64,000 nt of DNA from Clostridia bacterium (GTDB taxonomy: Bacteria > Bacillota > Clostridia > RGIG6154), in contig JAZROD010000044.1 of the NCBI GenBank assembly GCA_045648505.1, forward strand, positions 80,995 to 144,994, in the 5' to 3' direction. A model generated the notes under the pieces. That model was not told the DNA's origin, did no database searches, and was given only the letters and a program-made list of their open reading frames with translations. This document shows positions 1,128 to 24,938 of this stretch, piece by piece. The position numbers and the translations under genes are program-made. Positions within the stretch are counted from its first letter, which is position 1. The number at the start of each line of letters is the position of its first letter.

Positions 1128-2594
1128 ATGCGAAAAAAGATAGCCGGCTCAAATGACGGCATAAACAAGCAGGAACAATCCGCAAGCACAAATACCCAAA
1201 ACAAAAAGAATATCTTTAGCCGTTTATTTGCGTGGTTTAAAGGTAAGACAAACAAATATATACTCAAATTCAAAGCCAACAAGAAAACAGCAATTGCTTA
1301 TATTTCTGGGCTTTGTACTTTTGGAATTTGCATTTTTATTCTTTCTAACATACAAATAGGATATGCGGTTGTTTTCAACAACGAAACCATTGGTTATGTT
1401 TCAGAAAAATATGCAACAGAGCTTGCGCTTGATACTATTTATTCTGATATAGAAACATACGCATCTGAAGAAGACAATATAAATATCACAACATCCTTAA
1501 AACCATCGGTTGCTCCTGATTTATTTTTTAAATCAGAAACAGAAATTGCAGACATAATCAAATCAAGCCTTGATTTTTATGTTGAGGCCTGTTGCATTTA
1601 TATTGACGGACAGCCTGCACTTTCCACAAAGGATAAAGCAGATGCACAAAAAGCAATTGAGGAATATAAAAATTCCTGCATTGGCGGTGACGGTGAGGTT
1701 TTAAACCTTACTGTGAAAGAAAATATTGAATACAAAAACACAAGAGTTGTTCTGGCAACAGTTTTATCTGTTGAAGATGCGGTTAAAACCCTTCACGGTA
1801 CTATGGCTAAAGAAGGTCTTTACACAGTTGTTGAAGGTGATACTCTATGGAGCATCGGTATTGAAAACAATATGCCTACAGACTATCTTATGGAGCTCAA
1901 CAACCTTGACAGCGAATTTCTCAGCATCGGTGATGTTCTTCGTGTAACTCATCCTGTTCCTCTTCTTACCGTAACGGTAGAAAAGCGAATCAATTATACC
2001 GAATATATCCCTTACGAAACAGAGCAGATTTATGACTCAAAGCTTACAAAGGGTACTAACAAAACCGTACAGAAAGGTCAGAATGGTGAAAACAAGATTA
2101 CTGCGGTTGTAACGATGGTAAACCTTCAGGAAACTGACCGTATTATTGAAAACACAGAGCATATTTGTGACCCTGTTAAAGAAATAATCAGAATCGGAAC
2201 AAAACCGAAGCCAAAAACAGCGGCAACCGGCAGATTCGGCAGACCTATCAACGGCGGATATGTTTCTTCTGCATACGGTAACAGAAGCAGAGGCTATCAC
2301 ACAGGTATAGACTATGCCCTTTCTTATGGTTCACCTATTTATGCATCCGACGGTGGTACTGTAACATATTCAGGATGGAGTGGTGGATACGGATATATGA
2401 TTAAAATCAACCACGGCAACGGTTATGAAACAGTTTACGCTCATTGCAGTAAGCTTGCGGTTTCATCAGGTAAAAAAGTTGCAAAGGGTCAGGTTATTGC
2501 TTATGTAGGAAGTACCGGTAACAGTACAGGTCCACATCTTCACTTTGAAATAAGAAAAAATGGGTCATATATGAACCCATCCAATTATTATTAA
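1128..2594 (+). CDS. LysM- and G5-domain M23 family metallopeptidase
   Basis: LysM (YTVVEGDTLWSIG...GDVLRV), a G5-like segment, and the M23 motifs HTGIDYA...GYGYMIKINHGNGYETVYAHCS...GSTGNSTGPHLHFEI. Confidence 0.8.
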   Translation: MRKKIAGSNDGINKQEQSASTNTQNKKNIFSRLFAWFKGKTNKYILKFKANKKTAIAYISGLCTFGICIFILSNIQIGYAVVFNNETIGYVSEKYATELALDTIYSDIETYASEEDNINITTSLKPSVAPDLFFKSETEIADIIKSSLDFYVEACCIYIDGQPALSTKDKADAQKAIEEYKNSCIGGDGEVLNLTVKENIEYKNTRVVLATVLSVEDAVKTLHGTMAKEGLYTVVEGDTLWSIGIENNMPTDYLMELNNLDSEFLSIGDVLRVTHPVPLLTVTVEKRINYTEYIPYETEQIYDSKLTKGTNKTVQKGQNGENKITAVVTMVNLQETDRIIENTEHICDPVKEIIRIGTKPKPKTAATGRFGRPINGGYVSSAYGNRSRGYHTGIDYALSYGSPIYASDGGTVTYSGWSGGYGYMIKINHGNGYETVYAHCSKLAVSSGKKVAKGQVIAYVGSTGNSTGPHLHFEIRKNGSYMNPSNYY

Positions 2595-2623
2595 AAAAAT
2601 AAGCCTTCGGGCTTATTTTTTTA
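2594..2623. terminator. bidirectional intrinsic terminator
   Basis: aaaaaaat-AAGCCTTCGGGCTT-attttttt hairpin between the convergent M23 and spoIID genes. Confidence 0.6.
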
Positions 2624-3530
2624 ATTCTGTTCCTGGGTAGTAGTGCTTTAATATTTCTTCGTAGCTATACCCTGCTTTTGCATAATGATTTGCCCCGTAC
2701 TGACTCATTCCCACTCCGTGTCCATAGCCATAGACGGTGAAGATGTATTCTCCGTCTTTTTCTTCTATATTAAAATTTGCCGAGCGCAAATCAAACAGTT
2801 CTCTTATTTTCGCACCTGTATATTCTTTTTCGCAAAGGGTTATTGTTTTTACCGTTCCCGCATCCGTTCTTGCTATCTCCCCTATTACTTTTTCAAAGTC
2901 CTTTGCTCCCAGTTTTTCTACAAGTTGATGATAACCTACCGAAACCTTTGTTTCATAACCTTTTACAGTCTTATCACCTTCGCTTTCAACGCTCACAAGG
3001 TAAGGCAGCTGTCCGCCCCATATATCTGCCGAGCTTTCTGTTTTTCCTGAAGAAATCGCGTGAAACACCGTTGATGCATATTCATCTTCATACATAAGAG
3101 CTTCGCCCTTTGTTTCCATTACTGCTTCCTGAAGCTTTTGCTGATATTTTTCTTCAAGTTCTTCATTACTATATGCCATACAATGATTACTGTCTGTGCA
3201 AACCGAAGCCTTTGGATGCTTTTCATTCTTCACTTTAAGTTTTTTCAATGTATATGTTCTTACTGCAACTGCCTGAGCTTTAAGTGCTTCTTTTTCAAAA
3301 GACGCAGGCATTTCTTTTGCCACCGCATTAAACACATATTCCTCCAAAGGAATATAAAAGACCTCTTCTTTTTCAAAGTCATACACGCTTATTTTTTCAC
3401 CTTCTGAAATTTTCTTTTCTTTTTTTGTAATAAGTGTGCTGACAGGTATAATATATATTAGTATTATAAACACCAGCCCCATACTAATCATCTTTTTCAC
3501 TCTTGTCCCCCCGTTTTCCATATATTTCAT
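2613..3530 (-). CDS. spoIID: stage II sporulation protein D (SpoIID/LytB domain lytic transglycosylase)
   Basis: VFHAISSGKTE...ADIWGG..PYL and YGYGHGVGMSQYGAN motifs plus an N-terminal membrane anchor. The start may be the internal MISMGL. Confidence 0.7.
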   Translation of the reverse strand: MKYMENGGTRVKKMISMGLVFIILIYIIPVSTLITKKEKKISEGEKISVYDFEKEEVFYIPLEEYVFNAVAKEMPASFEKEALKAQAVAVRTYTLKKLKVKNEKHPKASVCTDSNHCMAYSNEELEEKYQQKLQEAVMETKGEALMYEDEYASTVFHAISSGKTESSADIWGGQLPYLVSVESEGDKTVKGYETKVSVGYHQLVEKLGAKDFEKVIGEIARTDAGTVKTITLCEKEYTGAKIRELFDLRSANFNIEEKDGEYIFTVYGYGHGVGMSQYGANHYAKAGYSYEEILKHYYPGTELKK

Positions 3531-7307: not shown

Positions 7308-8891
7308 TTAAAGAAATCTGCCTATGATTTTATTGATTTTTTCTGCTCCGGGCATTGAACTTACATCTTCTTTTGTTATTCCTTTAAAGAGAATAAGCCC
7401 TGCAAAATATAAAACAACCGCAAGACCAATGGCAACAACAAGGGCAATTTTATAATCTGTAACGCCCTTTGTAAGGTCATAAACAAAGTATGTTGCCACA
7501 CCCATAACCAGGGCAGAGCCACCTATCTTTAAAACATTTCCCATTCCTACAGATGTATCAAGATATTTTTTAAGAGCAAGAAGGTTTAATCCTGCAGTTA
7601 CCAGATAGCAAAGGTCTGTTCCGATTGGTGCACCGTGAATATTAATAGCCGGATTCCCCACTAAAATATAATTTACAATAACCTTTACTGCCGCACCTAT
7701 TGCCATATGAACAATTGGTACCCACACTTTACCTATTGACTGCAGAATTGAGTTTGTAACCATAACAAGGCTCAAAAAGATAATTCCGTATGCAAGAATA
7801 GATAAAAGCTTTGCTCCACCAAAATCACCCATAAGAAGATTAAGTATAGGCGCAGAAAGTATTGACATTCCCACCGCACAAGGAACTGCAAAAATAAGTG
7901 TAAGTCTTAAAGCAGTTGCGGCGGTAAGGCGTGCTTCTTTTTTATTGCCAAGTGCAATAGCACCTGCAATTGCAGGAACAACACTTACACTCATACCCGT
8001 TATTACAACATTGGGCATATTGAACATTGTAACCGCATCTCCTGCATAATATCCGTAAAGCTGAATTCTTGTTGCTTCATCAAAGCCTATTGCTTCAAGC
8101 TGACGCATAATCATTCCAAGATCAATAAATGTTGCCATAGTGAAAACTGTTGCACCAAGAGTAATAGGGACTGCCAGTTTCAAAAGCTTTACAAGAATTT
8201 CTTTTGAACTTCTCACCTGTTCTTCAACAGAAGTTCCCATAAGCTTTTTAATTTCTTTTTTATTTCTGGTGTTGTAGATAAACATATACACAGCACCTAT
8301 AAAGGTTCCTGTTGAAACACCAAGAATTGCTCCTGCTGCAGAAAACTGTTTTCCCATTGGAAGCATTACTGCCGCAAGTGCAAGTCCAAGTACAAGCTTA
8401 CCCAGTGCTTCAATTATTTCTGAAACCGCAGTGGGAAGCATATTACCAAGTCCCTGATTAAAGCCTCTGTATATACTCATAACGCAAACAAAAAACAAGC
8501 TTGGCGAAAGTGCCATTATGGCATAAGCCGCAGGTTCTGCACGGATAAATGAAGCAAATGTCTGTGCACCAAAAAACATTATTGAGCTTCCTACAAGACC
8601 TATAATGGTTAAAAGAACCTTTGCAACGCTATATATTTTGTTTGTTTCTCTGTAGTTTTTCGTTGCCACGCTTTCTGCAACCATTTTTGAAATGGCAACA
8701 GGAATACCTGCAGTTGCAACTATGAACAACACATTATATATGGTATATGCGGCGGTGTATATTCCGATACCGTCCGCCCCTAAAATAAACTTTCTTAACG
8801 GGATTTTATAAACTGCACCTATAATTTTAACAAGTATGCCTGCTATGGCAATTATAAGTGCTCCCTGAACAAAGCCTTGTTTTTTCTTCAA
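7308..8891 (-). CDS. MOP-superfamily polysaccharide/PG-precursor flippase (SpoVB/YabM-like)
   Basis: 527 aa, about 14 TM helices, N-terminal ALIIAIAGILVKIIGAVYKIPL typical of SpoVB/MurJ-like proteins. Its position next to the yab cluster matches yabM. Confidence 0.6.
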   Translation of the reverse strand: MKKKQGFVQGALIIAIAGILVKIIGAVYKIPLRKFILGADGIGIYTAAYTIYNVLFIVATAGIPVAISKMVAESVATKNYRETNKIYSVAKVLLTIIGLVGSSIMFFGAQTFASFIRAEPAAYAIMALSPSLFFVCVMSIYRGFNQGLGNMLPTAVSEIIEALGKLVLGLALAAVMLPMGKQFSAAGAILGVSTGTFIGAVYMFIYNTRNKKEIKKLMGTSVEEQVRSSKEILVKLLKLAVPITLGATVFTMATFIDLGMIMRQLEAIGFDEATRIQLYGYYAGDAVTMFNMPNVVITGMSVSVVPAIAGAIALGNKKEARLTAATALRLTLIFAVPCAVGMSILSAPILNLLMGDFGGAKLLSILAYGIIFLSLVMVTNSILQSIGKVWVPIVHMAIGAAVKVIVNYILVGNPAINIHGAPIGTDLCYLVTAGLNLLALKKYLDTSVGMGNVLKIGGSALVMGVATYFVYDLTKGVTDYKIALVVAIGLAVVLYFAGLILFKGITKEDVSSMPGAEKINKIIGRFL

Positions 8892-8967
8892 AACCTAACG
8901 CCTCCTGACTTTTTAATTATAGCAAAACTTTTTTCTTTTTTCAAGTACACATATATTTTATATATTG

Positions 8968-8996
8968 CAATAAAGCACAGTTTATGGTACAATATA
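8968..8996 (+). promoter_or_regulatory. sigma-A-type promoter (extended -10) for a small Cys-rich ORF
   Basis: TTGCAA-17 nt-TGgTACAAT. Confidence 0.4.
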
Positions 8997-9023
8997 CAAA
9001 AATGTGTCGAAAGGAGCTACATT

Positions 9024-9194
9024 ATGGAAACAGTACCTATGTGTGAAACCTGTATATTCGGAAATAAAATTATATGTACTGAAAATATTATATGTAAAAA
9101 GTATGGCGTTTTAGAAGCAGACGCTCCCTGCAAGCACTATAAATTTGACCTTACAAAAAAACAAGTCCGCAAAAAAAGAACAATTAAATTATAA
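9024..9194 (+). CDS. small cysteine-rich hypothetical protein (56 aa, zinc-ribbon-like)
   Basis: Encodes METVPMCETCIFGNKIICTENIICKKYGVLEADAPCKHYKF... with an AAAGGAG RBS, its own promoter and a downstream terminator. Confidence 0.4.
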   Translation: METVPMCETCIFGNKIICTENIICKKYGVLEADAPCKHYKFDLTKKQVRKKRTIKL

Positions 9195-11185: not shown

Positions 11186-12556
11186 TCATCCCAATCTTTT
11201 AGGAATGGTTATTTTCATTTTTGTTCCGCTATCCACAATACTTTCAACATCAATTTCTCCGCCGTGCATAAGCACAAGTTCTTTAACAATTGAAAGTCCA
11301 AGCCCTGTTCCACCACTTTCTCTGGACCTTGCTTTATCAACTCTGTAGAATCGGTCAAAGATTTTATTTATATCATTTTCAGGAATACCCACTCCGTTAT
11401 CTGCAACTTCTATTCTGCAGTTTTTGCCTTCATCATACACCCCTACTTCAACCTTGCCACCGCTTTGAGTATATTTTATGGCGTTATCGGTTATGTTATA
11501 AACCACCTGCCACAGTTTTTCTCTGTCCGCCATAGCAATTATTTCGCCTTCTGTTATATGAGTCATTTCAATACCTCTGCTTTCGGCAACAGGTGTTAAG
11601 CTTTTTACAATTCTCTGGCTCATTTCATTTATGTCCGTAACTTTAAGGCTTAAAGGCTCTGCTTCTGTATCTATTTTTGTCAAAGACAACAATCTTTCAA
11701 TAATTTTGTTAAGTCGATCAATTTCGCCTGTTATGTCCACCATAAATTCTCTTATGGTTTCGCCGTCTATTTCAGGCATAGAAAGTACAGATTCCGAAAG
11801 AAGCTTAATAGAGCTTAATGGTGTTTTAAGCTCGTGAGAAGCATTTGAAACAAAGGTTCTTCTTTTCTCCTCCATTTCACTCAATCTGCCCGAAAGCGTA
11901 TTAAATGCTTCCGCAAGGCTTTCAAGTTCTGCGCTTCCTTTGAATTTAACAAGTTCTCTTTCATTTTCAAATTCTGCCCGTGTAAGTCTTGATGTGAGTT
12001 TTTCAATAGGACTTACGATAATATCCGCCATAGCGGCACTTAAAATACCGATAAGAATACAAACCACAATGGAAATAACATATAAAAGCCATTTTATGTC
12101 TTTTATAAAATCATCTGTTGCACTTGCAACATTTGTTATATAAACAACACCCACAATTTCAGAATTTGAAATAACCGAAACCGCAGTCTGAACAACTGTT
12201 CCCACATCTTTTTCCTTATAGTTTGAAACAACGTCCTTACCTTTAACGGCGTTTATGATTTCATCCTTTACGAAGATTTTTCCTTCGATATTGTTATTTA
12301 TTCCGCTGTCAAAAATAACTCTCGCATGGATATCGGAAACTATAACACGCATTGAAGACGGAAGATTAAGGTCTTCCACCACATTTTCTATTTGCTTTGG
12401 TCTTGCTTTAATATCTTCAGCAATTAAGTTTGCCACAATGTTTGCATTTGCCATAAGCTCCACTTCTTCTCTGTTATAAAGATAGTTGCCTATGGATGCA
12501 GTTACATAAGTTGATATAAACAAAAGGGCTAAAACTATAATTCCAAGATATGTCAT
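11186..12556 (-). CDS. sensor histidine kinase (two TM helices, extracellular loop, HisKA and HATPase_c)
   Basis: H-box ASHELKTPLSSIK; N, G1 and G2 boxes (DNAIKYT, DNGVGIP, GGTGLGLSIV). Confidence 0.8.
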   Translation of the reverse strand: MTYLGIIVLALLFISTYVTASIGNYLYNREEVELMANANIVANLIAEDIKARPKQIENVVEDLNLPSSMRVIVSDIHARVIFDSGINNNIEGKIFVKDEIINAVKGKDVVSNYKEKDVGTVVQTAVSVISNSEIVGVVYITNVASATDDFIKDIKWLLYVISIVVCILIGILSAAMADIIVSPIEKLTSRLTRAEFENERELVKFKGSAELESLAEAFNTLSGRLSEMEEKRRTFVSNASHELKTPLSSIKLLSESVLSMPEIDGETIREFMVDITGEIDRLNKIIERLLSLTKIDTEAEPLSLKVTDINEMSQRIVKSLTPVAESRGIEMTHITEGEIIAMADREKLWQVVYNITDNAIKYTQSGGKVEVGVYDEGKNCRIEVADNGVGIPENDINKIFDRFYRVDKARSRESGGTGLGLSIVKELVLMHGGEIDVESIVDSGTKMKITIPKRLG

Positions 12557-12590: not shown

Positions 12591-13268
12591 TTAATTTTCT
12601 TTGAAGTAATAACCTACACCCCATTTTGTAAGAATATATTTAGGCTGAGCAGGATTTTCCTCAACCTTTTCTCTTAATCTTCTCATATGAACATCAACTG
12701 TTCTTACATCGCCTGATTTATTTGCACCCCAGATCAAATCAAAAAGGTCATCTCTTGAATAAACTCTGCCGGGATTTGAAAGGAAAAGGTCAATAATATT
12801 ATATTCTTTAACCGTAAGCTCAACAACTCTTCCGTCAACAATCATCTGTCTTGTTCGGCGGTCAAGCTTAACACCTGATGTTTCCTGCGCCTCTTCTGCC
12901 TGTTGCGGTTTTGCTCTTCTTCTTAAAATCGCCTTCACTCTTGCTTTAAGCTCAAGAATGTTAAAAGGCTTGGTAAGATAATCATCCGCACCATATTCAA
13001 GGCCCATAATTTTATCCATATCATCACTTTTAGCTGTAAGCATAATGATTGGAACAGAGGAGGTTTCTCTGACTTTCTGGCACACCTCAAGACCATCCAT
13101 TTTAGGAAGCATAAGGTCAAGAATAATAAGGTCTATGTCCTTGGTTTTTGCAATTCTTACGGCTTCTTCACCGTCGCCTGCAGTTTCAACTTCATAGCCA
13201 TCCTGTTCAAAATTAAATTTAAGTCCCTTAACCAAAAGTCTTTCGTCATCTACAATTAAAAGTTTCAT
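12591..13268 (-). CDS. OmpR-family response regulator
   Basis: Receiver domain KLLIVDDE...DLMLPKMDG followed by a winged-helix C-terminus (VHMRRLREKVE). GGAGGA RBS sits before the MKLL start. Confidence 0.85.
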   Translation of the reverse strand: MKLLIVDDERLLVKGLKFNFEQDGYEVETAGDGEEAVRIAKTKDIDLIILDLMLPKMDGLEVCQKVRETSSVPIIMLTAKSDDMDKIMGLEYGADDYLTKPFNILELKARVKAILRRRAKPQQAEEAQETSGVKLDRRTRQMIVDGRVVELTVKEYNIIDLFLSNPGRVYSRDDLFDLIWGANKSGDVRTVDVHMRRLREKVEENPAQPKYILTKWGVGYYFKEN

Positions 13269-13404
13269 ATTATCCTCCACTACTTTACTACTTTAAATGA
13301 TACATCAAAATCAAAATAATTGCAATATTTTTTATGATTTTATTTGAATTTATATGGCTTTTATGTTAGAATATAATTACTATATAATATGCGGTGATAA
13401 TTGT

Positions 13405-14694
13405 ATGAAAAAAACTTTAAGTTTTATACTGATTTTTATTATAATATTCTCTTTCACAAGCCCTGTTTCAGCAAATATCGACAAGGTTGCGGCATCTACC
13501 TATTACCTAGTTGCCCCTGATACAGGAAGCGTTCTTGCGGAAAAGAACTGTTCCGGTAACCTTGACCCCGGAGATTTCTCAAAGATAATGACGGCAATCA
13601 TTGCCATTGAAAAACTAAACAAGGATTCATACCTTGCTTTCTCTGCCGAAAGTCTTTCTTTTAAAAACAATTTCGGCAACATTATGAGCGTAAAAGAAGG
13701 CTACAGCATCAAAGTTTATGAGCATCTTCAGAATATGCTTCTTCTCTTTTCGGATGCAAGTGCCAATCAGCTTGCCATTTCCATCAGTGAAAACAAAGAC
13801 AATTTCGTTAAAGAGATGAACAAAAAAGCTCTTGCCCTTGATATGAAGGATACCACCTTTACTTCTCCGTCAGGCTTTGATGGTGAAAGTGGTAAAACAA
13901 CGGTTTACGACCTTGTCAAGCTTGCACAGTATGCTATGGACCTTCCGCTTTTTGCAGAAATTTCTGCAACAGATGTTTTTTATGTTAACTTAAACGGTGA
14001 AGAAAAGAAATTTTCAAGCAGAAATCACCTTATAAGCAAATACACCTATTCCGATTACACCTACAAGGCTGCACTTGGAATAATGCCTTCTTATTTTACT
14101 GATAATGCAAATTTTATTGCATATAGCGAAAAAAATTCATCAAAACTTATTGCGGTTGTGGTAAACAGTCCCAGCGATTCAAACCTTACTGTTTACAGAG
14201 ATGTTATAAACCTTCTTTCTTACGGATACAATAATTTTCATTATTCTGTCATCTGCAGAGAAGGTGAAATAATTGACCAGATTCCCGTAATCGGCGGAAG
14301 AGCAGATGCCGTTACACTGCAATGCGACTCTTCGGTCCGTGCACCTTTACCCAACGGATATGACCACGAGCTTTTAGAGGTTAATGTCCGTAAAAACAAT
14401 GAAAAAGTGCGAGCACCAATAAGAAAGGGTACAATTCTTGGTTATGCCGATTATAAGTATGGCGAAAATCACATTGCAACCATTCCTTTAGTTGCAGATA
14501 AAGATATTGGCTTCAGCCTTTTATCCTTTATACATGACACCCTTTTCGGTTCAATCAACACAACATTTTTATTTATACTTATACTTTTGATTTTTATCTG
14601 GTGTATTCTTTCTTCAAAATCAAAAGCACAGAAGGCAAAGCGTGCCAGAAAAAGAAAAGAAATTATTGAGAAAATAGACAGAGAAAGGAAATAA
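13405..14694 (+). CDS. D-alanyl-D-alanine carboxypeptidase (S11/PBP5) homolog with non-canonical active-site motifs
   Basis: Signal peptide, overall PBP5/DacB-like sequence and a C-terminal TM anchor. The SxxK position reads DFSK (LDPGDFSKIMTAIIAIEKL versus canonical LAPASMTKIMT). Confidence 0.65.
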   Translation: MKKTLSFILIFIIIFSFTSPVSANIDKVAASTYYLVAPDTGSVLAEKNCSGNLDPGDFSKIMTAIIAIEKLNKDSYLAFSAESLSFKNNFGNIMSVKEGYSIKVYEHLQNMLLLFSDASANQLAISISENKDNFVKEMNKKALALDMKDTTFTSPSGFDGESGKTTVYDLVKLAQYAMDLPLFAEISATDVFYVNLNGEEKKFSSRNHLISKYTYSDYTYKAALGIMPSYFTDNANFIAYSEKNSSKLIAVVVNSPSDSNLTVYRDVINLLSYGYNNFHYSVICREGEIIDQIPVIGGRADAVTLQCDSSVRAPLPNGYDHELLEVNVRKNNEKVRAPIRKGTILGYADYKYGENHIATIPLVADKDIGFSLLSFIHDTLFGSINTTFLFILILLIFIWCILSSKSKAQKAKRARKRKEIIEKIDRERK

Positions 14695-14698: not shown

Positions 14699-15757
14699 AT
14701 GATTTTAAAACAGACAGAAGAAAATTTAAAAGAGCTTGACGCTTTTATGCAATCTTCCTTAAAAAGCAATTTTGCTCAGTCAAAAATGTGGGCAAATTTA
14801 AAAGATAACTGGAAAAACGAAATCGTTGTAAGCCGTGATGAAGACGGTAAAATCAACGGTGCTATGAGCATTCTCATCAGAAAAGTTCCTTTCTTTAAAA
14901 ACACTCTTATGTATGCTCCTAGAGGTCCTGTTTGTGACATTCACAACAAAAAAATTCTTTTTGAGCTTTTTGACTCAACAAAAGAACTTGCAAAAGAGCA
15001 TAAAGCCTATGTTTTAAAAATTGACCCTGATATTAAAATAGATGATGAAGAATTCAAAGCAATTGTAAAGGAATATGGTTTTAAAATCCAGAAGCCTACA
15101 AAGAACTTTGAAGGAATTCAGCCAAGATTTGTTTTCAGACTTGATGTTGAAAATAAAACAGAGGACGAGGTTTTTGCATCATTCCACAACAAGACAAGAT
15201 ATAATGTGCGTGTTGCACTTAAAAACAATGTTACTGTTACAATCGGCAACCGTGACGACCTTAAAAGATTCCACGAAATTATGGTTGAAACAGGTGCAAG
15301 AGATGAATTCGTTATAAGAAATCTTGCATACTTTGAAAAAATGTATGATATGATGGCACCAACAGATAATTTAAGACTTTACCTTGCCCACTATGAAGGA
15401 AACATTGTTGCAGGTACTATTGCAATCAAATATGGCGACAAGGTGTGGTATCTTTACGGTGCAAGCTCAAACGCTTCAAGAAATGTTATGCCAAACTATC
15501 TTCTTCAGTGGGAAATGATTAAATGGGCAATTAAAGAAAAATGCAGAGTTTATGACTTCAGAGGCGTTTCAGGTGATTTAAGCGAAGATAATCCTTTATA
15601 TGGTCTTTACCGTTTCAAAAAAGGCTTCAGCGGTGAATTTACTGAATTTATCGGCGATATTGACCTGGTTTACTCTCCACTTATGAAATTTGCAATTGAC
15701 AAAGGTGAAAGACTTTACAGAAACTTGAGAAGAAAGGTTATGCTCCGCAAGAAATGA
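14699..15757 (+). CDS. FemAB-family peptidoglycan interpeptide aminoacyltransferase
   Basis: FemABX family similarity (MWANLKDNWK...YAPRGPV...YLYGASS); 352 aa. Confidence 0.65.
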   Translation: MILKQTEENLKELDAFMQSSLKSNFAQSKMWANLKDNWKNEIVVSRDEDGKINGAMSILIRKVPFFKNTLMYAPRGPVCDIHNKKILFELFDSTKELAKEHKAYVLKIDPDIKIDDEEFKAIVKEYGFKIQKPTKNFEGIQPRFVFRLDVENKTEDEVFASFHNKTRYNVRVALKNNVTVTIGNRDDLKRFHEIMVETGARDEFVIRNLAYFEKMYDMMAPTDNLRLYLAHYEGNIVAGTIAIKYGDKVWYLYGASSNASRNVMPNYLLQWEMIKWAIKEKCRVYDFRGVSGDLSEDNPLYGLYRFKKGFSGEFTEFIGDIDLVYSPLMKFAIDKGERLYRNLRRKVMLRKK

Positions 15758-16830
15758 ATAAATTAGTTATTGAAAAAGAACTTTTAAAGCATAATGTTGA
15801 AACAATAAAAGCTCACGCAGGCAACACTCCCGTTATGGGCATTGTAAAATGCAACGGCTACGGTCTGGGACTTGTTGAATATTCAAAGCTTCTTCTTGAA
15901 TACGGCATTGACCTTCTTGGTGTTTCCTGTTTTGATGAGGCAATCGCCTTGAAAGACAATGGTATTAACTGCGAAATTGTGCTTTTAACACCCTATTCAG
16001 ACGAAGATGTTTTAAAAGAAATTGTTAAAAGAGATATTATTGCAACCGTTGGCTCTACAACTTCTGCAAAAGCACTTGAAAATGCAGGTGTTGTCCTTGG
16101 GAAAACACCAAGAGCAAATATAGAAATAGATACAGGTATGGGAAGATGCGGTTTTTCGGTGGAAAAGCTTGATGAAATCCTTTCCGTTAAAGACCTGCTT
16201 ATTGATTATTGCGGTACATTTTCTCATTTTTCTTTCAGCTTTGCAGACAAGGATGTTTATGTTTTAAATCAGCTTGAGAAATTTGAAAAAGCAATCACCT
16301 ACTTAAACAATAACGGCTTTAAAACAGGTGTTCTTCATATTGCGAACTCATCTGCTTTTATGAAATACAAAGAAACTCACCTTGATATGGTGAGAGTGGG
16401 TTCTGCACTCCTTGGAAGAGTTGAAGGGGCAGAAAGCTTCGGCCTTAAAAAAATCGGATATCTTGAAACAAGAGTTATTGAAACAAACCTTTTGAAAAAA
16501 GGTTCAAATGTTGGCTATGCGAACACCTTCAAAGTGAAAAAAGATACCGAAACAGCCATAATTCCAATAGGTTATGCAGATGGTTTCTTAACCGAGAAAA
16601 AGAGAGACACATTCCGTTTTTTCGACACTTTAAGATATATCAAAGAAGCAATTTTACCCGGGAAATATTTTGTTAAAATCAATAACACCCCTGCAAAAAT
16701 AATCGGCAGAGTTGGGATGTTCAATATCATCTGCGATGTTACTGGTATGAATGTTGTTCCCGGTGACAAGGTTACTGCAAATGTAAACCCTATACTGCTT
16801 GATAATTCTGTCACAAGAGAATATATTTAA
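15754..16830 (+). CDS. alanine racemase family PLP enzyme
   Basis: PLP-lysine motif PVMGIVKCNGYGLG and catalytic-Tyr motif PIGYADG. Start overlaps the femAB-like stop (ATGA). Confidence 0.65.
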   Translation: MNKLVIEKELLKHNVETIKAHAGNTPVMGIVKCNGYGLGLVEYSKLLLEYGIDLLGVSCFDEAIALKDNGINCEIVLLTPYSDEDVLKEIVKRDIIATVGSTTSAKALENAGVVLGKTPRANIEIDTGMGRCGFSVEKLDEILSVKDLLIDYCGTFSHFSFSFADKDVYVLNQLEKFEKAITYLNNNGFKTGVLHIANSSAFMKYKETHLDMVRVGSALLGRVEGAESFGLKKIGYLETRVIETNLLKKGSNVGYANTFKVKKDTETAIIPIGYADGFLTEKKRDTFRFFDTLRYIKEAILPGKYFVKINNTPAKIIGRVGMFNIICDVTGMNVVPGDKVTANVNPILLDNSVTREYI

Positions 16831-16860
16831 AAGAAGAGCCTTACAGGCTCTTCTTTAATT
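16829..16860. terminator. bidirectional intrinsic terminator
   Basis: AAGAAGAGCCttacagGCTCTTCTT. Confidence 0.55.
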
Positions 16861-18388
16861 TAGGTATAATAAGTCTTGTTCCTTTTTTGGCTTTATTGTC
16901 CGAAAGCTTATTCAACTCTTTTATAACCTCAACCGATGCACCGTATTTTTTTGCAATATTCCACACATCTTCCCCTTCGTCTGCAAAATAAATCGTCAAA
17001 GATGGCTTTTTTTCTGTTGCTTCAGACAAGGAAACATCTGTTACAGGACTGATTATCTTTTCATCATAAACTATTCCCTCTGCTCCGATATTTACACTTA
17101 CTTCCACACTGTTTTCATTAACCTGACTGCAGGAAACTTTAAGTGCCGATAAATCAATATCACACACAGACTCACTGTTTATATTTGAGCATTTGATTTT
17201 TTCATTTATTTTTACTTCCTTGTGAAGATTGTTTACAGGAAGTTCATTGTCCTGTGAAATATAAAGCACATAAATTTCTGCGGTTGCGCTTATGGTAATT
17301 CCTGATGAATCTGCAGATATTTCGTCTAAAAAAACATCACATTGAGTGTTGTATACCTTGCTTATGGAAGGTGCATCCCCTTCTGTATACAAAACTTCTT
17401 TCAGAGCTATCTGTTTTGAAACACTTTCTGCCACAGAACTGATTTTAACCTTTTCTTTAACAAGCTCCGCATTTTTATCTGTGGAATATCCGTCACTGAT
17501 AAGGCTTTGTTTTTCTTCTCTTATTCCTCTTATTTTTGCATTTATGTCCGCCTTTAAATTAACTGCATTGATGTTTCCTGCATCATCGCCCTTAATATCA
17601 TATTCCACAAACATTGGTGAAAGTGCAACAGAGCTTTTCATATTTTCTTCAAGACCTTCCGCTTCCACCACCTCTGTGAAGGGAATTTCACTTGAAAACA
17701 CATTAAGCTCATTTTCACCTGAAACTGCATAAACCACAGAAGCTGTAAGAGTTCCTTTTAAAACCACTTTGTTGTTTATAGGTTTTGCAGAGAAACTGTC
17801 AACGCTCACATTCACCTTTACCACATCTTCTGCCAAAGGCTCGGAAACAGGAATTGCAATAATATCTGAAACCGAAAATTTTCTGTTTACGGTTTTATCA
17901 AAACTTATGTAGCTTACCTCATCGCATTTAAGTTCAAGACTGTGGTTTTCCACATTGCACACAACTTCCTGTTCGTTAAAGCTGTATACCTTTATTTTAG
18001 TCAGTATTTCTGCTTTTACATTAACCTTTCTTCCGTTCACAACACGAAAGCTTACGCTTTCTGTTTCACATTCTGCAACAGAAATCATATTTTCATCCAC
18101 ACCGCTTATTTCTTTAACATCCGTAAAATCACAGGTGCAATGCATACTTTTTATACATCCGCTTCCTTTTTCAGGCATATAAAGTATGCAAAAATCAACT
18201 TTACCACTATTTATAACTCTGTCATTTTTAACTTCGCTTGACAAAATATGAGAACTTGCATCAACCTGAAGAATCTTGCCAATATCCGGTTTATTCTGGG
18301 GAACAACCGCATCATTTTCAACCAGTGTTCTCTGATTGCCTGAAAAATATCTGTTTTCAGTTTTAAGTGTATTTCTTATTAACTCCAT
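16841..18388 (-). CDS. sporulation-associated protein with C-terminal LysM domain (SipL-like)
   Basis: 515 aa; C-terminal LysM (TIYFADEGEDVWNIAKKYGASVEVIKELNKL). Size and architecture resemble clostridial SipL. Confidence 0.4.
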   Translation of the reverse strand: MELIRNTLKTENRYFSGNQRTLVENDAVVPQNKPDIGKILQVDASSHILSSEVKNDRVINSGKVDFCILYMPEKGSGCIKSMHCTCDFTDVKEISGVDENMISVAECETESVSFRVVNGRKVNVKAEILTKIKVYSFNEQEVVCNVENHSLELKCDEVSYISFDKTVNRKFSVSDIIAIPVSEPLAEDVVKVNVSVDSFSAKPINNKVVLKGTLTASVVYAVSGENELNVFSSEIPFTEVVEAEGLEENMKSSVALSPMFVEYDIKGDDAGNINAVNLKADINAKIRGIREEKQSLISDGYSTDKNAELVKEKVKISSVAESVSKQIALKEVLYTEGDAPSISKVYNTQCDVFLDEISADSSGITISATAEIYVLYISQDNELPVNNLHKEVKINEKIKCSNINSESVCDIDLSALKVSCSQVNENSVEVSVNIGAEGIVYDEKIISPVTDVSLSEATEKKPSLTIYFADEGEDVWNIAKKYGASVEVIKELNKLSDNKAKKGTRLIIPKLKKSL

Positions 18389-18421
18389 ATCTCATTCTCC
18401 TTATTCTTTTTATTAAATAAT

Positions 18422-20017
18422 ATGAATGATAAAACAAAATATGCAGATAATAGCAGTATGAAAAATTTATTGAAATTATTATTTACAGACACAGATAAAA
18501 ATTCTTTTGTTCTTGATGAACATCCTGCAGGAGAAGTTGCATATCCTCCCATACCTGAATATATTTTCCCATCATGGCGTCACAATTTAGATACTGTTAC
18601 TGCTGTTTTCAACAAGGATTTAAGCAGTGATATAAAAATCAGGGAATTCAGCTGCGGAGGTAAAAATGCATTTATTGTTTTTATTGAAAGTATGGTTGAT
18701 TCCAACCGAATAAACACCCATATTTTAGCACCTATGATGCTTATTCCAAGTAATGCCACAGAAGAAGACATAACAAATTCTCTTATTGTGGTAAATCAGC
18801 TTACAGTCACAGATAAGTTTGAAGATGCTTTTTACAGTCTTTCTCTCGGTGATTGTGTAATTTTTGTTGACGGCGTTGAAAAAGCCTTTATGTGTGATGT
18901 TAAAAGTTGGGAGCGAAGAGGGGTTGAACCACCTGTTTCGGAAGCAGTTATCTATGGTCCTCACGAAGGTTTTACCGAAAATTTCAAAACAAATGGTGCT
19001 CTTATAAGAAAAAATGTTCATTCTCCCGACCTCATAAGCGAAATGCTTACAGTTGGCAAGGTCAGTAAAACACCCATTTCTGTTCTTTATATGAAAAACA
19101 TTGCAAACGAAAGCCTTGTAAAAGAGGTTAAACGCAGAATTGAGAACTTAAACAGTGACTATATTTTTCAACTTGGTCAGCTTGAACAGTTTCTGGAAGA
19201 TAAGACCTTCACTCTCATTCCCCAGTTCCTCACAACAGAAAGACCTGACAGAGCGTGCGAGTGTCTTATTGAAGGTAAGGTTGTTATTTTAATGCACGGA
19301 AGTCCCTTTGCACTTATCTGCCCTGTCACATTAACTGAATTCTTCACCACAGTTGAAGATAAATATATCCGTTTTCCCTTTTCAAACTTTTTAAAGGTAA
19401 TAAGACTTATCGCAATTCTGTCTTCTTTTCTTTTACCCGGACTTTATATTGCACTTGTTACCTTTCATATAGAAATGATTCCCTCAAGCCTTTTGTTTGC
19501 CATTGAAGCATCAAGAGAAGCAGTCCCCTTTCCTGCTTTGATAGAGCTTCTGATAATGGAAACCGCCTTTGATATTATAAGAGAAGCAAGCCTTCGTGTG
19601 CCCTCATCAATCGGCTCAACACTTGGTATTATAGGCGGTCTTATTATAGGTCAGGCGGCAGTTGAAGCAAGCCTTGTAAGTCCTATCAGTATTATTATTG
19701 TGGCAATCACAGGTATCGGCTCTTTTGCAACGCCAAACTATGCACTCAATATGAGCTTCCGCCTTTTAAGATATTTCTATATTCTTGCAGGAGCTTTGGC
19801 AGGCTTTGGTGGAGTTGCCCTTTGTATGTTCATACACACTTGCATTTTATCAAATGCCAAGTCTGTAGGTGCACCTGTTTTTAACGGTTTTTCTTCATCT
19901 GTTTTTCGCAATCTTTTTGATTTTCCTGTATGGAAAAACGAAGAAAGACACACAACCGCAAACCCCAAGCAAACACAGCTTCAGGGGAAAATCAGCAGAA
20001 GGTGGGTGAAAAAATGA
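18422..20017 (+). CDS. spore germination protein, GerA family A subunit
   Basis: N-terminal soluble region plus a C-terminal membrane domain (LIGGLIIGQAAVEA...), typical of GerAA/GerKA. Confidence 0.75.
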   Translation: MNDKTKYADNSSMKNLLKLLFTDTDKNSFVLDEHPAGEVAYPPIPEYIFPSWRHNLDTVTAVFNKDLSSDIKIREFSCGGKNAFIVFIESMVDSNRINTHILAPMMLIPSNATEEDITNSLIVVNQLTVTDKFEDAFYSLSLGDCVIFVDGVEKAFMCDVKSWERRGVEPPVSEAVIYGPHEGFTENFKTNGALIRKNVHSPDLISEMLTVGKVSKTPISVLYMKNIANESLVKEVKRRIENLNSDYIFQLGQLEQFLEDKTFTLIPQFLTTERPDRACECLIEGKVVILMHGSPFALICPVTLTEFFTTVEDKYIRFPFSNFLKVIRLIAILSSFLLPGLYIALVTFHIEMIPSSLLFAIEASREAVPFPALIELLIMETAFDIIREASLRVPSSIGSTLGIIGGLIIGQAAVEASLVSPISIIIVAITGIGSFATPNYALNMSFRLLRYFYILAGALAGFGGVALCMFIHTCILSNAKSVGAPVFNGFSSSVFRNLFDFPVWKNEERHTTANPKQTQLQGKISRRWVKK

Positions 20018-20994
20018 ACAAGCTTTCTTCTAAAGAAGCAATCGCAGTTATTACCAATTTAATTTGTGCAAAAACCTTTTTAATGGTGCCCATTTATTTT
20101 AAAAGAATTACAGAAAGCGGAAGCATTGTAACTGTTTTATATATTTTTCTGCTTGCATTTATTTTTCTTTTACTCAAAAATTTTACACCGAAAGCAAAAA
20201 TCAAAGCTTTATACCCACCTATAGCTTTAATAATGCTTGTTGTTTGCAGTATAAATCTTTTTGAATACTCCATGACCATTTCTTCTCTTTTCTTTAAAAA
20301 CACGCCACTTTTATTGATTTTTCTTTTCTTTTGTGTTGCAATGGTTTTTGGTGCATACTCAAACATAGGCAAGCTTAACTTGTTTTTTACACCCATTATT
20401 TATTCAGTTGTATTTTTAATGCTTATTTTTACTTTTTCGGGCGGAAATTATTATTATCTGTTCCCCATTTTCGGCAAAGGTTTTGATTCAGTATTTAAAG
20501 ATGGTTTTTTTATGCTTTCATCTCTTTTTGAGCTTGTTGTTTTGATTTTTATTCCCGATTTGCTGAAAAATAAGAAAGATATGAAAAAAGTTTCTGCATT
20601 TTCTTTGATTTTTTCTTTAATAATTTTTCTGGTTATAACCTCTGCGTGCCTTGTGACGGTGCACACAGACCTGCCTGAAAACTGTTTTTCTCCATTGTTC
20701 TTAATTTTACGACAAATAAAAATAGGCACTTATTTTCAGCACCCCGATACTGCATTTCTTATAATCTATTTCATCTCTGCATTTTTGTATCTTTCAACTA
20801 TGCTTTACTTTTCGGCACATATCTTTGCACTTTCAGGTCGAAAATTGTCGAAAAAGATGTTTATTATTCCTTTTTCGCTTATTGTTTTGATTCTTGGAAT
20901 TAATGCGGGTGCATTTATAGAAGCTTCATCAATTTTAAATATGCTTTTATGGATTTTTCCCTTTGTTGTGCCTTTGTTTTTAAGGAGGTCTTAA
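20014..20994 (+). CDS. spore germination protein B subunit (spore permease family)
   Basis: About 10 TM helices; start MNKLSSKEAI overlaps the A-subunit stop by ATGA. Confidence 0.7.
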   Translation: MNKLSSKEAIAVITNLICAKTFLMVPIYFKRITESGSIVTVLYIFLLAFIFLLLKNFTPKAKIKALYPPIALIMLVVCSINLFEYSMTISSLFFKNTPLLLIFLFFCVAMVFGAYSNIGKLNLFFTPIIYSVVFLMLIFTFSGGNYYYLFPIFGKGFDSVFKDGFFMLSSLFELVVLIFIPDLLKNKKDMKKVSAFSLIFSLIIFLVITSACLVTVHTDLPENCFSPLFLILRQIKIGTYFQHPDTAFLIIYFISAFLYLSTMLYFSAHIFALSGRKLSKKMFIIPFSLIVLILGINAGAFIEASSILNMLLWIFPFVVPLFLRRS

Positions 20995-20995
20995 T

Positions 20996-21982
20996 ATGAA
21001 AAAATTTTTACTTGCCGTTTTAGTATTTTCAACATTTCTTTTAACTTCGTGTTTTGACGGTGCTGAAACAGAAAACCGCGCTTATGTGGTTGCTATCGGT
21101 ATTGACAAAACACAGACCAAAGAATTAAGCTACACATTTCAGTACGCCCTGCCCCTTAACATTGACAGTACAGAAGATGAATCACTTAAATGCGAAACGA
21201 TAAATGCAACAAACATATACAGTGCATCTGATATTTTCAACTCTCATATTTCCAGGGAAATAAATTTTTCTCATTTAAAGCTTATAGTTTTCAATGAAAA
21301 TGTGGCATCTGACGGACTTGAACGCTTCAAGCCCATGCTTTTAAGCAATACCGATATTCTCCCCTCTGCCTGTATTACCATTTCAAAAGAGCCTGCACAG
21401 GAATATCTTGAAAATGTATTTTCACCCCTTGAGCTCAACCCTGCCAAATACTACAACTTTGCATTTGATGAAAAAAATTCGCCTTTTTCCGAAGCCTTTT
21501 ATATAAAGAACTTCTTTGAAAAAACTGACTATGTTATCCCCTTCACCAAAGAAGGGGCAGTTGTTTTTAAAGACCATAAAGCCGTCTCAACTCTTGAAGA
21601 CAATGAAATTCCATACTATAAGCTTCTGGCAGGCACAATGAACAAATTTACCATAGACTTCACAGGTCAGGGTTTTTCCTGTGTTGCAGTTCAGGAAAAG
21701 AAGCCTTCCATCCGAATTGACAAAAACAACTTAAATGTTTTTATCACCCTTCACCTTAAACTTTCTTTTTACGGTAATCCGCCAAAAAACGCCAAAGCCT
21801 TAACAGAAACCAAAATAAAACAAAAGTGCCTTAATATTATAAATAAGGCACAAAACAAAAACACCGATATATTAAACATAGCCACCGCCTTCAGACCGCA
21901 CTTTTCAACACTCCATCAATACGAAGCCTTTAATTTTCAAGAAAAATATCAGGAAATTTATTTTGATATTATAATAAAATAA
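20996..21982 (+). CDS. spore germination protein C subunit (GerAC-family lipoprotein)
   Basis: Lipobox LLTSCF and a YVVAIGIDKT start typical of Ger(x)C; third gene of the operon. Confidence 0.7.
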   Translation: MKKFLLAVLVFSTFLLTSCFDGAETENRAYVVAIGIDKTQTKELSYTFQYALPLNIDSTEDESLKCETINATNIYSASDIFNSHISREINFSHLKLIVFNENVASDGLERFKPMLLSNTDILPSACITISKEPAQEYLENVFSPLELNPAKYYNFAFDEKNSPFSEAFYIKNFFEKTDYVIPFTKEGAVVFKDHKAVSTLEDNEIPYYKLLAGTMNKFTIDFTGQGFSCVAVQEKKPSIRIDKNNLNVFITLHLKLSFYGNPPKNAKALTETKIKQKCLNIINKAQNKNTDILNIATAFRPHFSTLHQYEAFNFQEKYQEIYFDIIIK

Positions 21983-23784: not shown

Positions 23785-24825
23785 TTAATTTTTTGCAAAC
23801 TGTGCTCTTGCAAGTGAGCCAAGGTCATCAATATGCTCTAATGCCTTACCTGTACCGATTGCAACACAAGAAATTGAGTCTGCCGCAACTTCAACCTTGA
23901 TACCTGTTTCTCTCTGGAGAAGTTTATCAAGACCGTAAATAAGGCTTCCGCCACCTGTTAAGATAATACCTCTTGTTGAGATATCACCGATAAGTTCAGG
24001 CGGAGTTTTTTCCATTACATTATGGATAGCTTCGCAAATCTGTGAAACCGGTTCTTCTAAAGCTTCAAATGTTTCTTCTGAAGAAATTGTAATTGTCTGT
24101 GGAAGACCTGTAATCAAGCTTCTTCCCTTAACCTGACATGTAACAACTTCATCTCTTAAATAAACACTACCAACCTGAATTTTAACTTCTTCTGCAGTTC
24201 TTTCACCGATTGCAACATTATATTTCTTTCTGATATATTTAACGATAGCTTCGTCAAACTTATCACCGCCAACCTTGATTGATTCAGATGTAACAATACC
24301 GCCAAGAGAAATAACAGCGATATCTGTTGTACCACCACCGATATCAACAACCATTGAACCATAAGGCTTGTCTATTTCAATACCTGAACCAATAGCTGCT
24401 GCAATAGGTTCTTCGATAATGAATACAGATCTTGCACCTGCGTGAACTGTTGCATCAATAACGGCTCTCTGTTCAACTTCAGTAACACCGCTTGGTACAC
24501 AAACAATAACACGTGGCTTGAAAAGCTTTGAAGGATTTACTTTAGAGATAAAATATTTAAGCATTTTTTCTGTTGTTTCGTAGTCAGAAATTACGCCCTC
24601 CTTCATTGGTCTGATAGCTCTGATATTGCCTGGTGTTCTTCCAAGCATTTCCTGTGCTTCAATACCAACTTTAACAACCTGCTTTGTTGCACTGTCAATT
24701 GCAACTACAGAAGGTTCTCTGATAACAATACCCTTATCCTTCACATAAACAAGAACAGATGCAGTACCAAGGTCGATACCGATATCAGTTCCGAATCCAA
24801 ATAATCTTTTGAAAAAATCGAACAA
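23785..24825 (-). CDS. mreB: rod shape-determining protein MreB/Mbl
   Basis: Actin-fold motifs IGIDLGTASVLVYV and DIGGGTTDIAVISLGGIV; 346 aa. Confidence 0.85.
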   Translation of the reverse strand: MFDFFKRLFGFGTDIGIDLGTASVLVYVKDKGIVIREPSVVAIDSATKQVVKVGIEAQEMLGRTPGNIRAIRPMKEGVISDYETTEKMLKYFISKVNPSKLFKPRVIVCVPSGVTEVEQRAVIDATVHAGARSVFIIEEPIAAAIGSGIEIDKPYGSMVVDIGGGTTDIAVISLGGIVTSESIKVGGDKFDEAIVKYIRKKYNVAIGERTAEEVKIQVGSVYLRDEVVTCQVKGRSLITGLPQTITISSEETFEALEEPVSQICEAIHNVMEKTPPELIGDISTRGIILTGGGSLIYGLDKLLQRETGIKVEVAADSISCVAIGTGKALEHIDDLGSLARAQFAKN

Positions 24826-24862
24826 TTTTTACAACTCCTTACTATTATATCCTAATTATTTT

Positions 24863-24900
24863 ACCTTATTTTCGTCAAAAAAGCAAGCCACTATATATTG
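24863..24900 (-). terminator. intrinsic terminator of the surface-protein gene
   Basis: AAGCAAGCCActatatatTGGCTTGCTT with a U-run on the minus strand. Confidence 0.5.
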
Positions 24901-24938
24901 GCTTGCTTTTCCATTTATGCACAAAATATTCCCTTTGC

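Follow-up and report, generated by a model that had tools for sequence, protein, structure and literature searches.

The gene at positions 13405 to 14694 on the plus strand of a 64,000-nucleotide stretch of Clostridia bacterium contig JAZROD010000044.1 (assembly GCA_045648505.1; the whole stretch is hereafter the window) encodes a member of the S11 family of D-alanyl-D-alanine carboxypeptidases in which all three catalytic motifs are altered. We refer to its product as pseudo-PBP5, after the penicillin-binding protein (PBP) whose fold it is predicted to share. With a probability of about 0.5, we read pseudo-PBP5 as a non-catalytic extracytoplasmic pseudo-enzyme that takes part in cell-wall homeostasis together with a divergently encoded response regulator (RR), sensor histidine kinase (HK), and GerM-type protein. 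The two components of this reading differ in strength. That the protein is non-catalytic but functional appears very probable from its sequence, while a working link to the RR-HK-GerM system is a more tentative proposition that we place somewhat short of even odds.

A PBP5-like protein and its altered motifs

The gene, its predicted promoter, and the elements of the encoded protein are as follows.

13405..14694, plus strand: pseudo-PBP5 coding sequence, 429 residues and a stop codon
13344..13372, plus strand: predicted sigma-A-type promoter, TTGAAT-17 nt-TAGAAT with TG before the -10 element, a consensus match only
13405..13473, plus strand: predicted signal peptide, residues 1-23 (MKKTLSFILIFIIIFSFTSPVSA; ending ...VSA and followed by N), read from the sequence only
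13573..13584, plus strand: degenerate SxxK, D57-F58-S59-K60 (PGDFSK against canonical PASxTK)
13747..13755, plus strand: degenerate SxN, F115-S116-D117 (LLLFSDASA against LxxSGNDAA)
14017..14052, plus strand: family-specific conserved loop S205-R-N-H-L-I-S-K-Y-T-Y-S216
14083..14091, plus strand: degenerate KTG, M227-P228-S229 (GIMPSY against G(I/V)KTG(Y/H/S)T)
14251..14508, plus strand: PBP5_C beta-sandwich domain (Pfam PF07943), residues 283-368, all-beta in the structural model
14560..14691, plus strand: predicted C-terminal transmembrane helix (residues ~386-404) and Lys/Arg-rich cytoplasmic tail (405-429)

The motifs were placed by HMMER pairwise alignments to the structures 5tr7, 3mfd, 4rye, and 4ppr and by two MAFFT alignments with canonical S11 proteins, and the two approaches agree on the position of all three. 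The initial annotation had proposed an Asp at the nucleophile position and an altered SGN region (FSDASAN), and both observations hold. Every alignment to S11 enzymes, characterised peptidases included, gives D57 in place of the acylated Ser, none places a Ser there, and the Lys of the motif is retained as Lys60; the second motif reads F115-S116-D117 and sits inside the invariant block H107-L-x-N-M-L-L-L-[FY]-S-D-A-S-A120. The same annotation had assigned KTG to KYTYS (residues 212-216), which proves to be mislocated, as these residues belong to the preceding loop and the true KTG position lies 11-15 residues further on; its conclusion that all three motifs are altered survives the misplacement. 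The loop itself carries the invariant residues R206, N207, H208, S211, and T214, and its R206-N207 pair aligns with the RN of NRNGLL in 5tr7, a Vibrio enzyme, which we take to be the equivalent of Arg198-Asn199 of E. coli PBP5. Only four Ser residues are invariant in the family alignment (S116, S119, S154, and S211), and S59 is replaced by Ala in one clade. Pseudo-PBP5 thus possesses none of the features that define a catalytic S11 protein, namely the SxxK Ser, SxN, and KTG, while profiles and fold identify it as an S11 homologue.

Confirmation of the open reading frame on the plus strand gave 13354-14694 as its full extent, within which the probable true start is the ATG at 13405 (MKK...), residue 18 of the longer form. 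This start, also chosen in the initial annotation, is corroborated by its conservation in homologues beyond the closest relatives, by a GGTGA ribosome-binding site 8 nt 5' of the ATG, and by the position of the predicted promoter, equivalents of which (TTGnnn/TAnAAT pairs) lie upstream of the gene in orthologues. The alternative ATG at 13354, which yields the 446-residue form deposited as P0001, was rejected: its 17-residue extension is seen in no homologues but the nearest ones, would leave the signal peptide internal, and runs across the predicted -10 element. The database start of P0001 is probably a start-codon mis-call that is 17 residues too long.

Homology to PBP5 and retention of both a signal peptide and a C-terminal anchor, likewise claimed at the outset, are well supported. 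Pfam recognizes both Peptidase_S11 (PF00768; 98.5 bits, E=5.4e-28, cut-off 27.6) and PBP5_C (PF07943; 44.6 bits, E=1.6e-11, cut-off 21.2). An AlphaFold2 model built from the family alignment (predicted local distance difference test score 87.9, predicted template modelling score 0.78) adopts the two-domain PBP5 fold, and Foldseek aligns it best, across both domains, with E. coli PBP6 and PBP5 (E ~1e-27, target-normalised template modelling score 0.78-0.84, 20-22% identity). The model places a helix at residues 386-428, and the C-terminal helix and tail are present in all family members in the alignment; the signal peptide is the least conserved block of the family (entropy 2.28). Sequence matches in the Protein Data Bank (PDB) include 5tr7, 3mfd (B. 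subtilis DacB), 4rye, and 4ppr. None of the NCBIfam equivalogs DacA, DacD, PBP3 (streptococcal), PBP4 (staphylococcal), and VanY-D scores above its cut-off; the best model, strep_PBP3, gives 79.6 bits (cut-off 490), and the others fall far short of theirs. No second S11 gene was found in the window, and scanning all of it against Rfam with gathering thresholds gave no RNA family and therefore no riboswitch or leader at the operon.

Conservation of the family and its cleft

The family to which pseudo-PBP5 belongs comprises about 48 sequence clusters and was found in 16 species when one genome was scanned for each GTDB species. All carriers are metagenome-assembled 'Clostridia' or 'Eubacteriales' from the gut of goat, sheep, water-deer, and human (Hadza, Nepal), and their being uncultured gut Clostridia throughout is the chief limit. 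Every database name found for the family is 'D-alanyl-D-alanine carboxypeptidase'. The family is sharply bounded: a word-indexed search returned a tight group, P0001-P0046, at E<=1e-67 and 35-100% identity, with a single canonical protein next at 1e-41 and ordinary S11 proteins starting at 1e-25. When 1.84 billion representatives were searched exhaustively, no more than six clusters at 50% identity reached E<=1e-65, and the remaining matches formed a continuum that began at 1e-46. Among 48 family representatives, the nucleophile column holds Asp in 33, Asn in 10, Glu in 5, and Ser in none. Lys60 is retained in 48/48, as is the pattern [FY]-S-D, in which the SxN Ser has become Phe or Tyr and the Asn has become Asp (48/48), and the position of the KTG Lys is hydrophobic throughout (M, I, L, F, or V). 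Members range from 35 to 100% identity and yet repeat these substitutions, so the loss of the motifs goes beyond chance.

Pseudo-PBP5 is kept by purifying selection. In comparisons with three orthologues of 72-83% identity, its ratio of nonsynonymous to synonymous substitution rates (dN/dS) is 0.092-0.096, alongside 0.10-0.13 for the downstream racemase gene alr, 0.12 for the HK, 0.05 for the RR, and 0.05-0.06 for the downstream femX; dS is near saturation and these ratios are approximate, with dN nonetheless far below dS. A decaying or functionless carboxypeptidase remnant might account for the loss of every catalytic motif and for the faster evolution of pseudo-PBP5 than of its neighbours (35-72% identity, against 73-93% for the RR), but it is hardly credible in the face of a frame that is intact at every locus, a dN/dS of ~0.09, 34 invariant columns in the family alignment, and the presence of the family in 16 species. 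A pseudogene is ruled out by dN/dS and conservation.

The constraint is unevenly distributed along the protein. The 34 invariant columns were counted in 46 aligned family sequences, and an entropy profile was computed on a subset of 20 sequences of <75% pairwise identity. The most conserved part of the protein is block 104-124, which contains [FY]SDASA (entropy 0.67, 52% invariant), followed by the alpha2 helix with DFSK (0.90) and the R-N-H-L-I-S loop (0.91), while the former KTG strand (224-233) has an entropy of 2.20 and is about as free to vary as the signal peptide. In catalytic S11 enzymes, the alpha2 helix, the SxN loop, and the Arg198-type loop line the active-site cleft as two of its walls and its rim. 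Because the cleft blocks are conserved while the KTG strand varies, the cleft appears to have been rebuilt rather than abandoned. Its two walls would be reorganized around K60, H107, N110, S116-D117-A-S-A, R206-N-H, S211, T214, and Y220, a pattern that points to retention of an altered binding surface rather than of a mere scaffold.

What such a surface might bind is a matter for conjecture. The Lys and Thr of the KTG motif hold the substrate carboxylate in PBPs. The description of pseudo-PBP5 as substrate-binding, put forward in the initial annotation, is not well supported, given that both residues are lost and the strand that bore them is as variable as the signal peptide. The loss of the KTG Lys and Thr, together with the Asp, Glu, or Asn gained at position 57 and the Asp gained at 117, speaks against canonical recognition of D-Ala-D-Ala. 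The old cleft, if it still binds, probably does so in a non-canonical way; greater acidity of the pocket might favour an amine, perhaps that of a cross-bridge or of the side chain of a diamino acid, or Asp57 may simply pair with Lys60 and fill the site. By comparison, the other half of that description, a catalytically inactive pseudo-carboxypeptidase, remains the best reading of the missing Ser, the degenerate SxN and KTG, and the dN/dS of ~0.09.

It is also conceivable that pseudo-PBP5 is still an enzyme that acts on a peptidoglycan-related substrate by another mechanism, using a carboxylate/Lys pair or S116 or S211. Polar residues are conserved all around the old site (K60, D/E/N57, S116, D117, R206, N207, H208, S211, and T214), and an active site would display a similar conservation of the cleft blocks. 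Against this, position 57 is Asn in 10/48 representatives, so that the catalytic carboxylate is not conserved, S59 becomes Ala in that Asn57 clade, and S116 is the 'x' of SxN. No precedent for an S11 fold lacking the Ser-Lys dyad was found in the literature searched, and we know of none that works without it. Altogether, we consider a new catalytic mechanism very unlikely.

As a non-catalytic pseudo-enzyme, pseudo-PBP5 would instead consist of a secreted PBP5 fold, anchored at its C-terminus and devoid of the ability to form an acyl-enzyme, whose rebuilt surface would bind a ligand or partner at the outer face of the membrane. The RR-HK-GerM system could then regulate it as one of its outputs, or it could assist that system by binding or sensing.

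The divergent signalling operon and other neighbours

Pseudo-PBP5 lies between a divergent signalling operon on the minus strand and two genes that follow it on the plus strand.

12591..13268, minus strand: OmpR-family response regulator (Pfam Response_reg/Trans_reg_C)
11186..12556, minus strand: sensor histidine kinase (HAMP-HisKA-HATPase) with two transmembrane segments and an extracytoplasmic loop of ~140 residues
10256..11185, minus strand: GerM-type protein with two GERMN (Germane) domains (Pfam Germane, 1.8e-49), last gene of the RR-HK operon
14699..15757, plus strand: FemAB-family aminoacyl-tRNA-dependent peptidoglycan transferase, FemX-like (Pfam FemAB, 1.5e-67)
15754..16830, plus strand: alanine racemase-family enzyme (Pfam Ala_racemase_N/C), overlapping femX by 4 nt
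16832..16857, no strand assigned: hairpin AAGAAGAGCC-TTAC-AGGCTCTTCTT between the convergent alr and sipL, a sequence reading

The start of the RR is likely the ATG at 13268, which has a GGAGG site, rather than the GTG at 13280. Among NCBIfam models, the RR best matches RpaB, YycF, VanR, and MtrA, all under cut-off (MtrA at 224 bits, cut-off 300). For the HK, the best match is WalK at 276 bits, again under cut-off and over the catalytic core only, with PnpS also among the best, and the MtrB model gives 195 bits against a cut-off of 450. The PDB matches of the GerM-type protein are GerM (6gzb) and a lipoprotein (5j7r); no Pfam domain beyond Germane and no match to a GMAD1 beta-propeller were found in it.

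Synteny was compared over 24 loci by phmmer at the level of open reading frames and by called genes, the operon being counted also where a contig reaches only part of it. The gene order RR-HK-GerM is conserved across family loci, and the divergent operon adjoins pseudo-PBP5 in 10/16 GTDB species in addition to the window, one locus being truncated. As such, it is a commoner neighbour than the femX-alr pair, which lies downstream of pseudo-PBP5 in 7/16 species, the window again being extra. The predicted promoters of the RR and of pseudo-PBP5 stand back-to-back, ~20 bp apart, and inspection by eye of 12 orthologous intergenic regions identified these two promoters as the sole shared elements, a conserved TGCAA being the -35 element of the RR promoter on the minus strand.

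Related S11 genes outside the family provide a further perspective. The nearest catalytically intact relative, P0048 (PASTTK, SAN, KTG), faces an RR 65% identical to that of the window, along with an HK. Two relatives that lack the nucleophile Ser have comparable surroundings: P0112 (PGGLTK), which lost the Ser independently, faces a ComEA-like gene and an RR of 61% identity, and P0131 (PAGLTK) faces a ComEA-like gene and a GerM-domain gene, so that at least two Ser-less clades also stand beside an RR or GerM-domain gene. Since these outgroup S11 genes, one of them intact, have similar neighbours, the pairing of this S11 branch with the signalling operon seems older than the loss of catalysis. 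The Ser itself is missing in 25/144 of the next representative clusters (P0110-P0253) and in 9/119 relatives of P0112 (P0254-P0372), the latter in several small clades (PGGLTK, PGTL[VTA]K, and others); with ~8-17% of the nearest S11 clusters Ser-less, the phenomenon is wider than the pseudo-PBP5 gene. Replacements of the Ser in related clusters comprise G, A, D, E, T, Y, H, P, and Q, often with damage to SxN or KTG as well, and further related clusters keep the Ser and have 'xNAG' in place of KTG.

Several considerations weigh against our interpretation. The loss of acyl-enzyme formation is deduced from the motifs, and the clustering of invariant residues in the cleft from alignment and known PBP5 structures. 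In 5/16 species (the P0016-P0028 clade), pseudo-PBP5 has no two-component system (TCS) as a neighbour, so that the linkage is frequent but not obligatory, and the canonical representative that ranked closest in the exhaustive search, P0110, is part of an ftsE-ftsX-M23-S41 operon with no TCS beside it. The surrounding region (yabP-yabQ-divIC and a MurJ-like gene) is syntenic too, and adjacency can reflect shared chromosomal ancestry rather than function. Finally, the intergenic region 13269-13404 contains no WalR-type repeat (TGTWAH-N5-TGTWAH, <=1 mismatch) and, apart from the two promoters, no recognisable RR-binding repeat.

Over the window as a whole, WalR-type repeats are no more frequent than chance would give (31 against 25.5 expected with <=1 mismatch; 2 against 0.8 for exact matches). 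One perfect repeat, TGTAATACTTTTGTAAC at 1078-1094 on the plus strand, lies 34 nt upstream of a LysM-G5-M23 peptidase open reading frame (1128-2594), a position that suggestively fits a wall-hydrolase regulon, the overall count not being significant. In the RR leader, on the opposite strand, a tandem 8-mer, ACTACTTT x2 at 13279-13294, directly precedes the GGAGG site of the RR; it is not conserved in loci L008 or L009.

In L003 (6645-9281) and L004 (protein P0021), the gene follows Bac_transf by 13 nt at the end of a Wzy_C-GT2-Bac_transf polysaccharide cluster, with TatD next, and further loci of the same subclade, L010-L012 and L015, also have neither TCS nor femX-alr as neighbours. Beyond the GerM end of the operon, a small open reading frame of 60-61 residues without a Pfam match lies between the MurJ/SpoVB-like gene and gerM in L001 (4603-4785) and L005 (4584-4769); in the corresponding region of the window, the open reading frame 8877-9194 (plus strand) includes a Cys-rich stretch of ~56 residues (METVPMCETC...), and a PfkB kinase gene stands between it and gerM. 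The surroundings in the window are rich in envelope and sporulation genes (1128-3530, 7308-8891, 16841-21982, and 23785-28499), among them those for an M23-LysM-G5 peptidase, SpoIID, a MurJ/SpoVB-like flippase, SipL, a germinant receptor (GerA/GerAB/GerAC operon), MreB, and a 1186-residue SLH-domain protein.

Such surroundings raise the question of a sporulation-specific factor, a degenerate counterpart of DacB or DacF that would shape or mark the spore cortex. The neighbourhood is indeed rich in sipL, the gerA operon, SpoIID, a GerM-domain protein, and a SpoVB/MurJ-like gene, and B. subtilis DacB (3mfd) is the second-best PDB sequence match. That match is weak, however (E=1.7e-19), and comparable to those of Gram-negative PBP5s; the predicted promoter is sigma-A-like and of a type conserved across orthologues; no spmA/spmB or spoIIA is adjacent; and sipL is a neighbour only in the close relatives L007 and L009. 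A dedicated role in sporulation therefore seems to us a poor prospect, of low probability.

On the downstream side, the initial annotation had pseudo-PBP5 co-transcribed with femX and alr, which is plausible: femX begins after a gap of 4 nt and has an AGGA ribosome-binding site, femX and alr overlap by 4 nt, and a terminator hairpin occurs only after alr. This hairpin (16832..16857) is likely a bidirectional terminator that closes the operon; a simple terminator scan did not list it. The FemX-like gene scores 204 bits on the NCBIfam FemX model, under the cut-off of 500. The racemase scores 197 bits on TIGR00492 (alr), over the cut-off of 168, and 189.6 bits on the model of the VanT-G serine racemase catalytic subunit, under the cut-off of 460. 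With the two scores nearly equal, any assignment of a substrate to the racemase, or of an added amino acid to the FemX-like enzyme, would be tentative.

It was further suggested that pseudo-PBP5 binds stem peptides and serves as a sensor or scaffold for this co-transcribed transferase and racemase, a role for which we find weak support and which we regard as distinctly unlikely. The trio in the window is certainly packed as an operon, with one terminator after alr, and it recurs in related loci (L001/L017, L007, L008, L009, L014, L016, and L019). In the PNEFSK clade, moreover, a catalytically typical S11 gene, which also receives a Pfam Beta-lactamase2 match, is convergent to alr (L001 11560-12735, minus strand; L017; and L019 11386-12570, minus strand), so that dead and presumably live carboxypeptidase genes flank femX-alr and the locus resembles a stem-peptide island. 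Nevertheless, the topology is unfavourable: FemX and Alr work in the cytoplasm, the S11-like domain is exported, and no more than the ~25 residues of the tail could extend to the cytoplasmic side. The KTG residues that would hold a carboxylate are lost, and their strand is unconstrained. The trio is also missing in at least 7/16 species: LepA lies downstream instead in L005 and TatD in L003, and FemX and Alr were not found in the downstream DNA examined for L010-L013, L015, and L021-L022, while in L018 and L020 the downstream DNA is too short to judge. Even where the trio occurs, the spacing varies (128 nt in L001, ~800 nt in L014).

A partnership of the non-catalytic pseudo-enzyme with the RR-HK-GerM system can be taken one step further. 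The dead PBP5 could act as an extracytoplasmic co-sensor whose cleft would read, but not cut, a feature of peptidoglycan (stem peptides that are uncross-linked or modified by FemX, for instance), and would signal to the WalRK/MtrAB-like kinase through its transmembrane helix or through the GerM-domain protein, completing a four-component circuit for cell-wall homeostasis. We hold this extension to be rather unlikely. If it were true, the repeated, independent loss of the Ser in Clostridial S11 clades would represent repeated recruitment of these proteins as wall sensors or regulators.

Comparison with known systems

Pseudo-PBP5 resembles E. coli PBP5 and PBP6 (DacA and DacC; class-C low-molecular-weight PBPs, MEROPS S11) in fold, domain order, export, and C-terminal membrane tether, and it retains the SxxK Lys and the putative equivalents of Arg198-Asn199 of PBP5. 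It departs from PBP5 in the replacement of the nucleophile Ser, the Ser and Asn of SxN, and the full KTG triad; it also has an insertion of two residues and the new motif RNHLIS(K/R)YTY, which is conserved. The anchors differ too: that of E. coli PBP5 and PBP6 is an amphipathic helix, whereas that of pseudo-PBP5 appears to be a true hydrophobic helix with a basic tail. From B. subtilis DacB (PBP5*), pseudo-PBP5 is distinguished by the lack of a dacB-spmA-spmB operon and of a sporulation-sigma promoter, and it scores 73 bits to 3mfd.

Closer at hand, the intact Clostridia S11 proteins of this branch (such as P0048, P0253, and P0129) share 30-34% identity, equal length, and the C-terminal anchor with pseudo-PBP5. 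Some of them also share an N-H-L-I-S-x-Y insertion, and P0048 shares the divergent RR-HK neighbour. They differ in keeping PAS(T/L/I)TK, S(A/G)N, and KTG, and a sharp score gap separates them from the family (E>=1e-46, against E<=1e-65 within it).

Parallels to the arrangement of the locus can be found in both Firmicute and actinobacterial regulation. Our literature search on a link between WalRK and GerM yielded the C. difficile dacJRS genes as the sole lead. There, DacRS activates dacJ, a neighbouring D,D-carboxypeptidase gene with a transcript of its own, whose product depletes D-Ala-D-Ala and raises the vancomycin minimum inhibitory concentration (PMC11326576). The window likewise places a carboxypeptidase-family gene with its own predicted promoter beside an RR-HK operon, control by the RR being here an analogy only. 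DacJ is functionally active, as pseudo-PBP5 is not expected to be; its peptidase family is not stated, and no GerM-type third gene is described, in that report (PMC11326576).

The actinobacterial MtrA-MtrB-LpqB system similarly groups an OmpR-type RR and an HK in one operon with a GERMN-domain protein, there the lipoprotein LpqB. The GERMN domain of LpqB has been proposed to bind peptidoglycan, and lpqB is nearly always encoded beside mtrAB (PMC2732212). The M. tuberculosis MtrA protein binds the dacB1 (Rv3330) promoter, and DacB1 localises to the septum (PMC6265350). The system in the window belongs to another phylum, its GerM-type protein has two GERMN domains and no GMAD1 propeller match, and all its NCBIfam scores fall under the equivalog cut-offs. 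DacB1 in turn differs from pseudo-PBP5 in being an active PBP encoded away from mtrAB (4ppr, among the PDB matches of pseudo-PBP5, is a meropenem complex of Rv3330). By analogy, the RR-HK-GerM operon may be a Clostridial counterpart of MtrAB-LpqB or of WalRK-YycHI; its likeness to WalRK, MtrAB-LpqB, and DacRS is one of layout and logic, not of orthology. The placement of pseudo-PBP5 beside such a system offers a hypothesis for how wall status could be fed into a Clostridial envelope TCS.

The low-molecular-weight PBPs have been treated as enzymes by definition, and in gut-microbiome annotation the genes of the present family ought to be left out of any count of carboxypeptidases or beta-lactam targets. 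Our search for literature on S11/PBP5 pseudo-enzymes or SxxK-less PBPs in Clostridia returned nothing relevant, and we found no earlier description of an S11 pseudo-enzyme in the literature searched; dead wall hydrolases that serve as regulators are known in other folds. The degenerate LytM factors, exemplified by EnvC/NlpD and SpoIIQ, are hydrolase folds that have shed their catalytic residues, kept the groove, and come to bind or activate envelope partners. Pseudo-PBP5 is like them in concept only, their fold (M23/LytM) being unrelated to S11, and a conserved clade without all three catalytic motifs would constitute the S11 counterpart of these factors.

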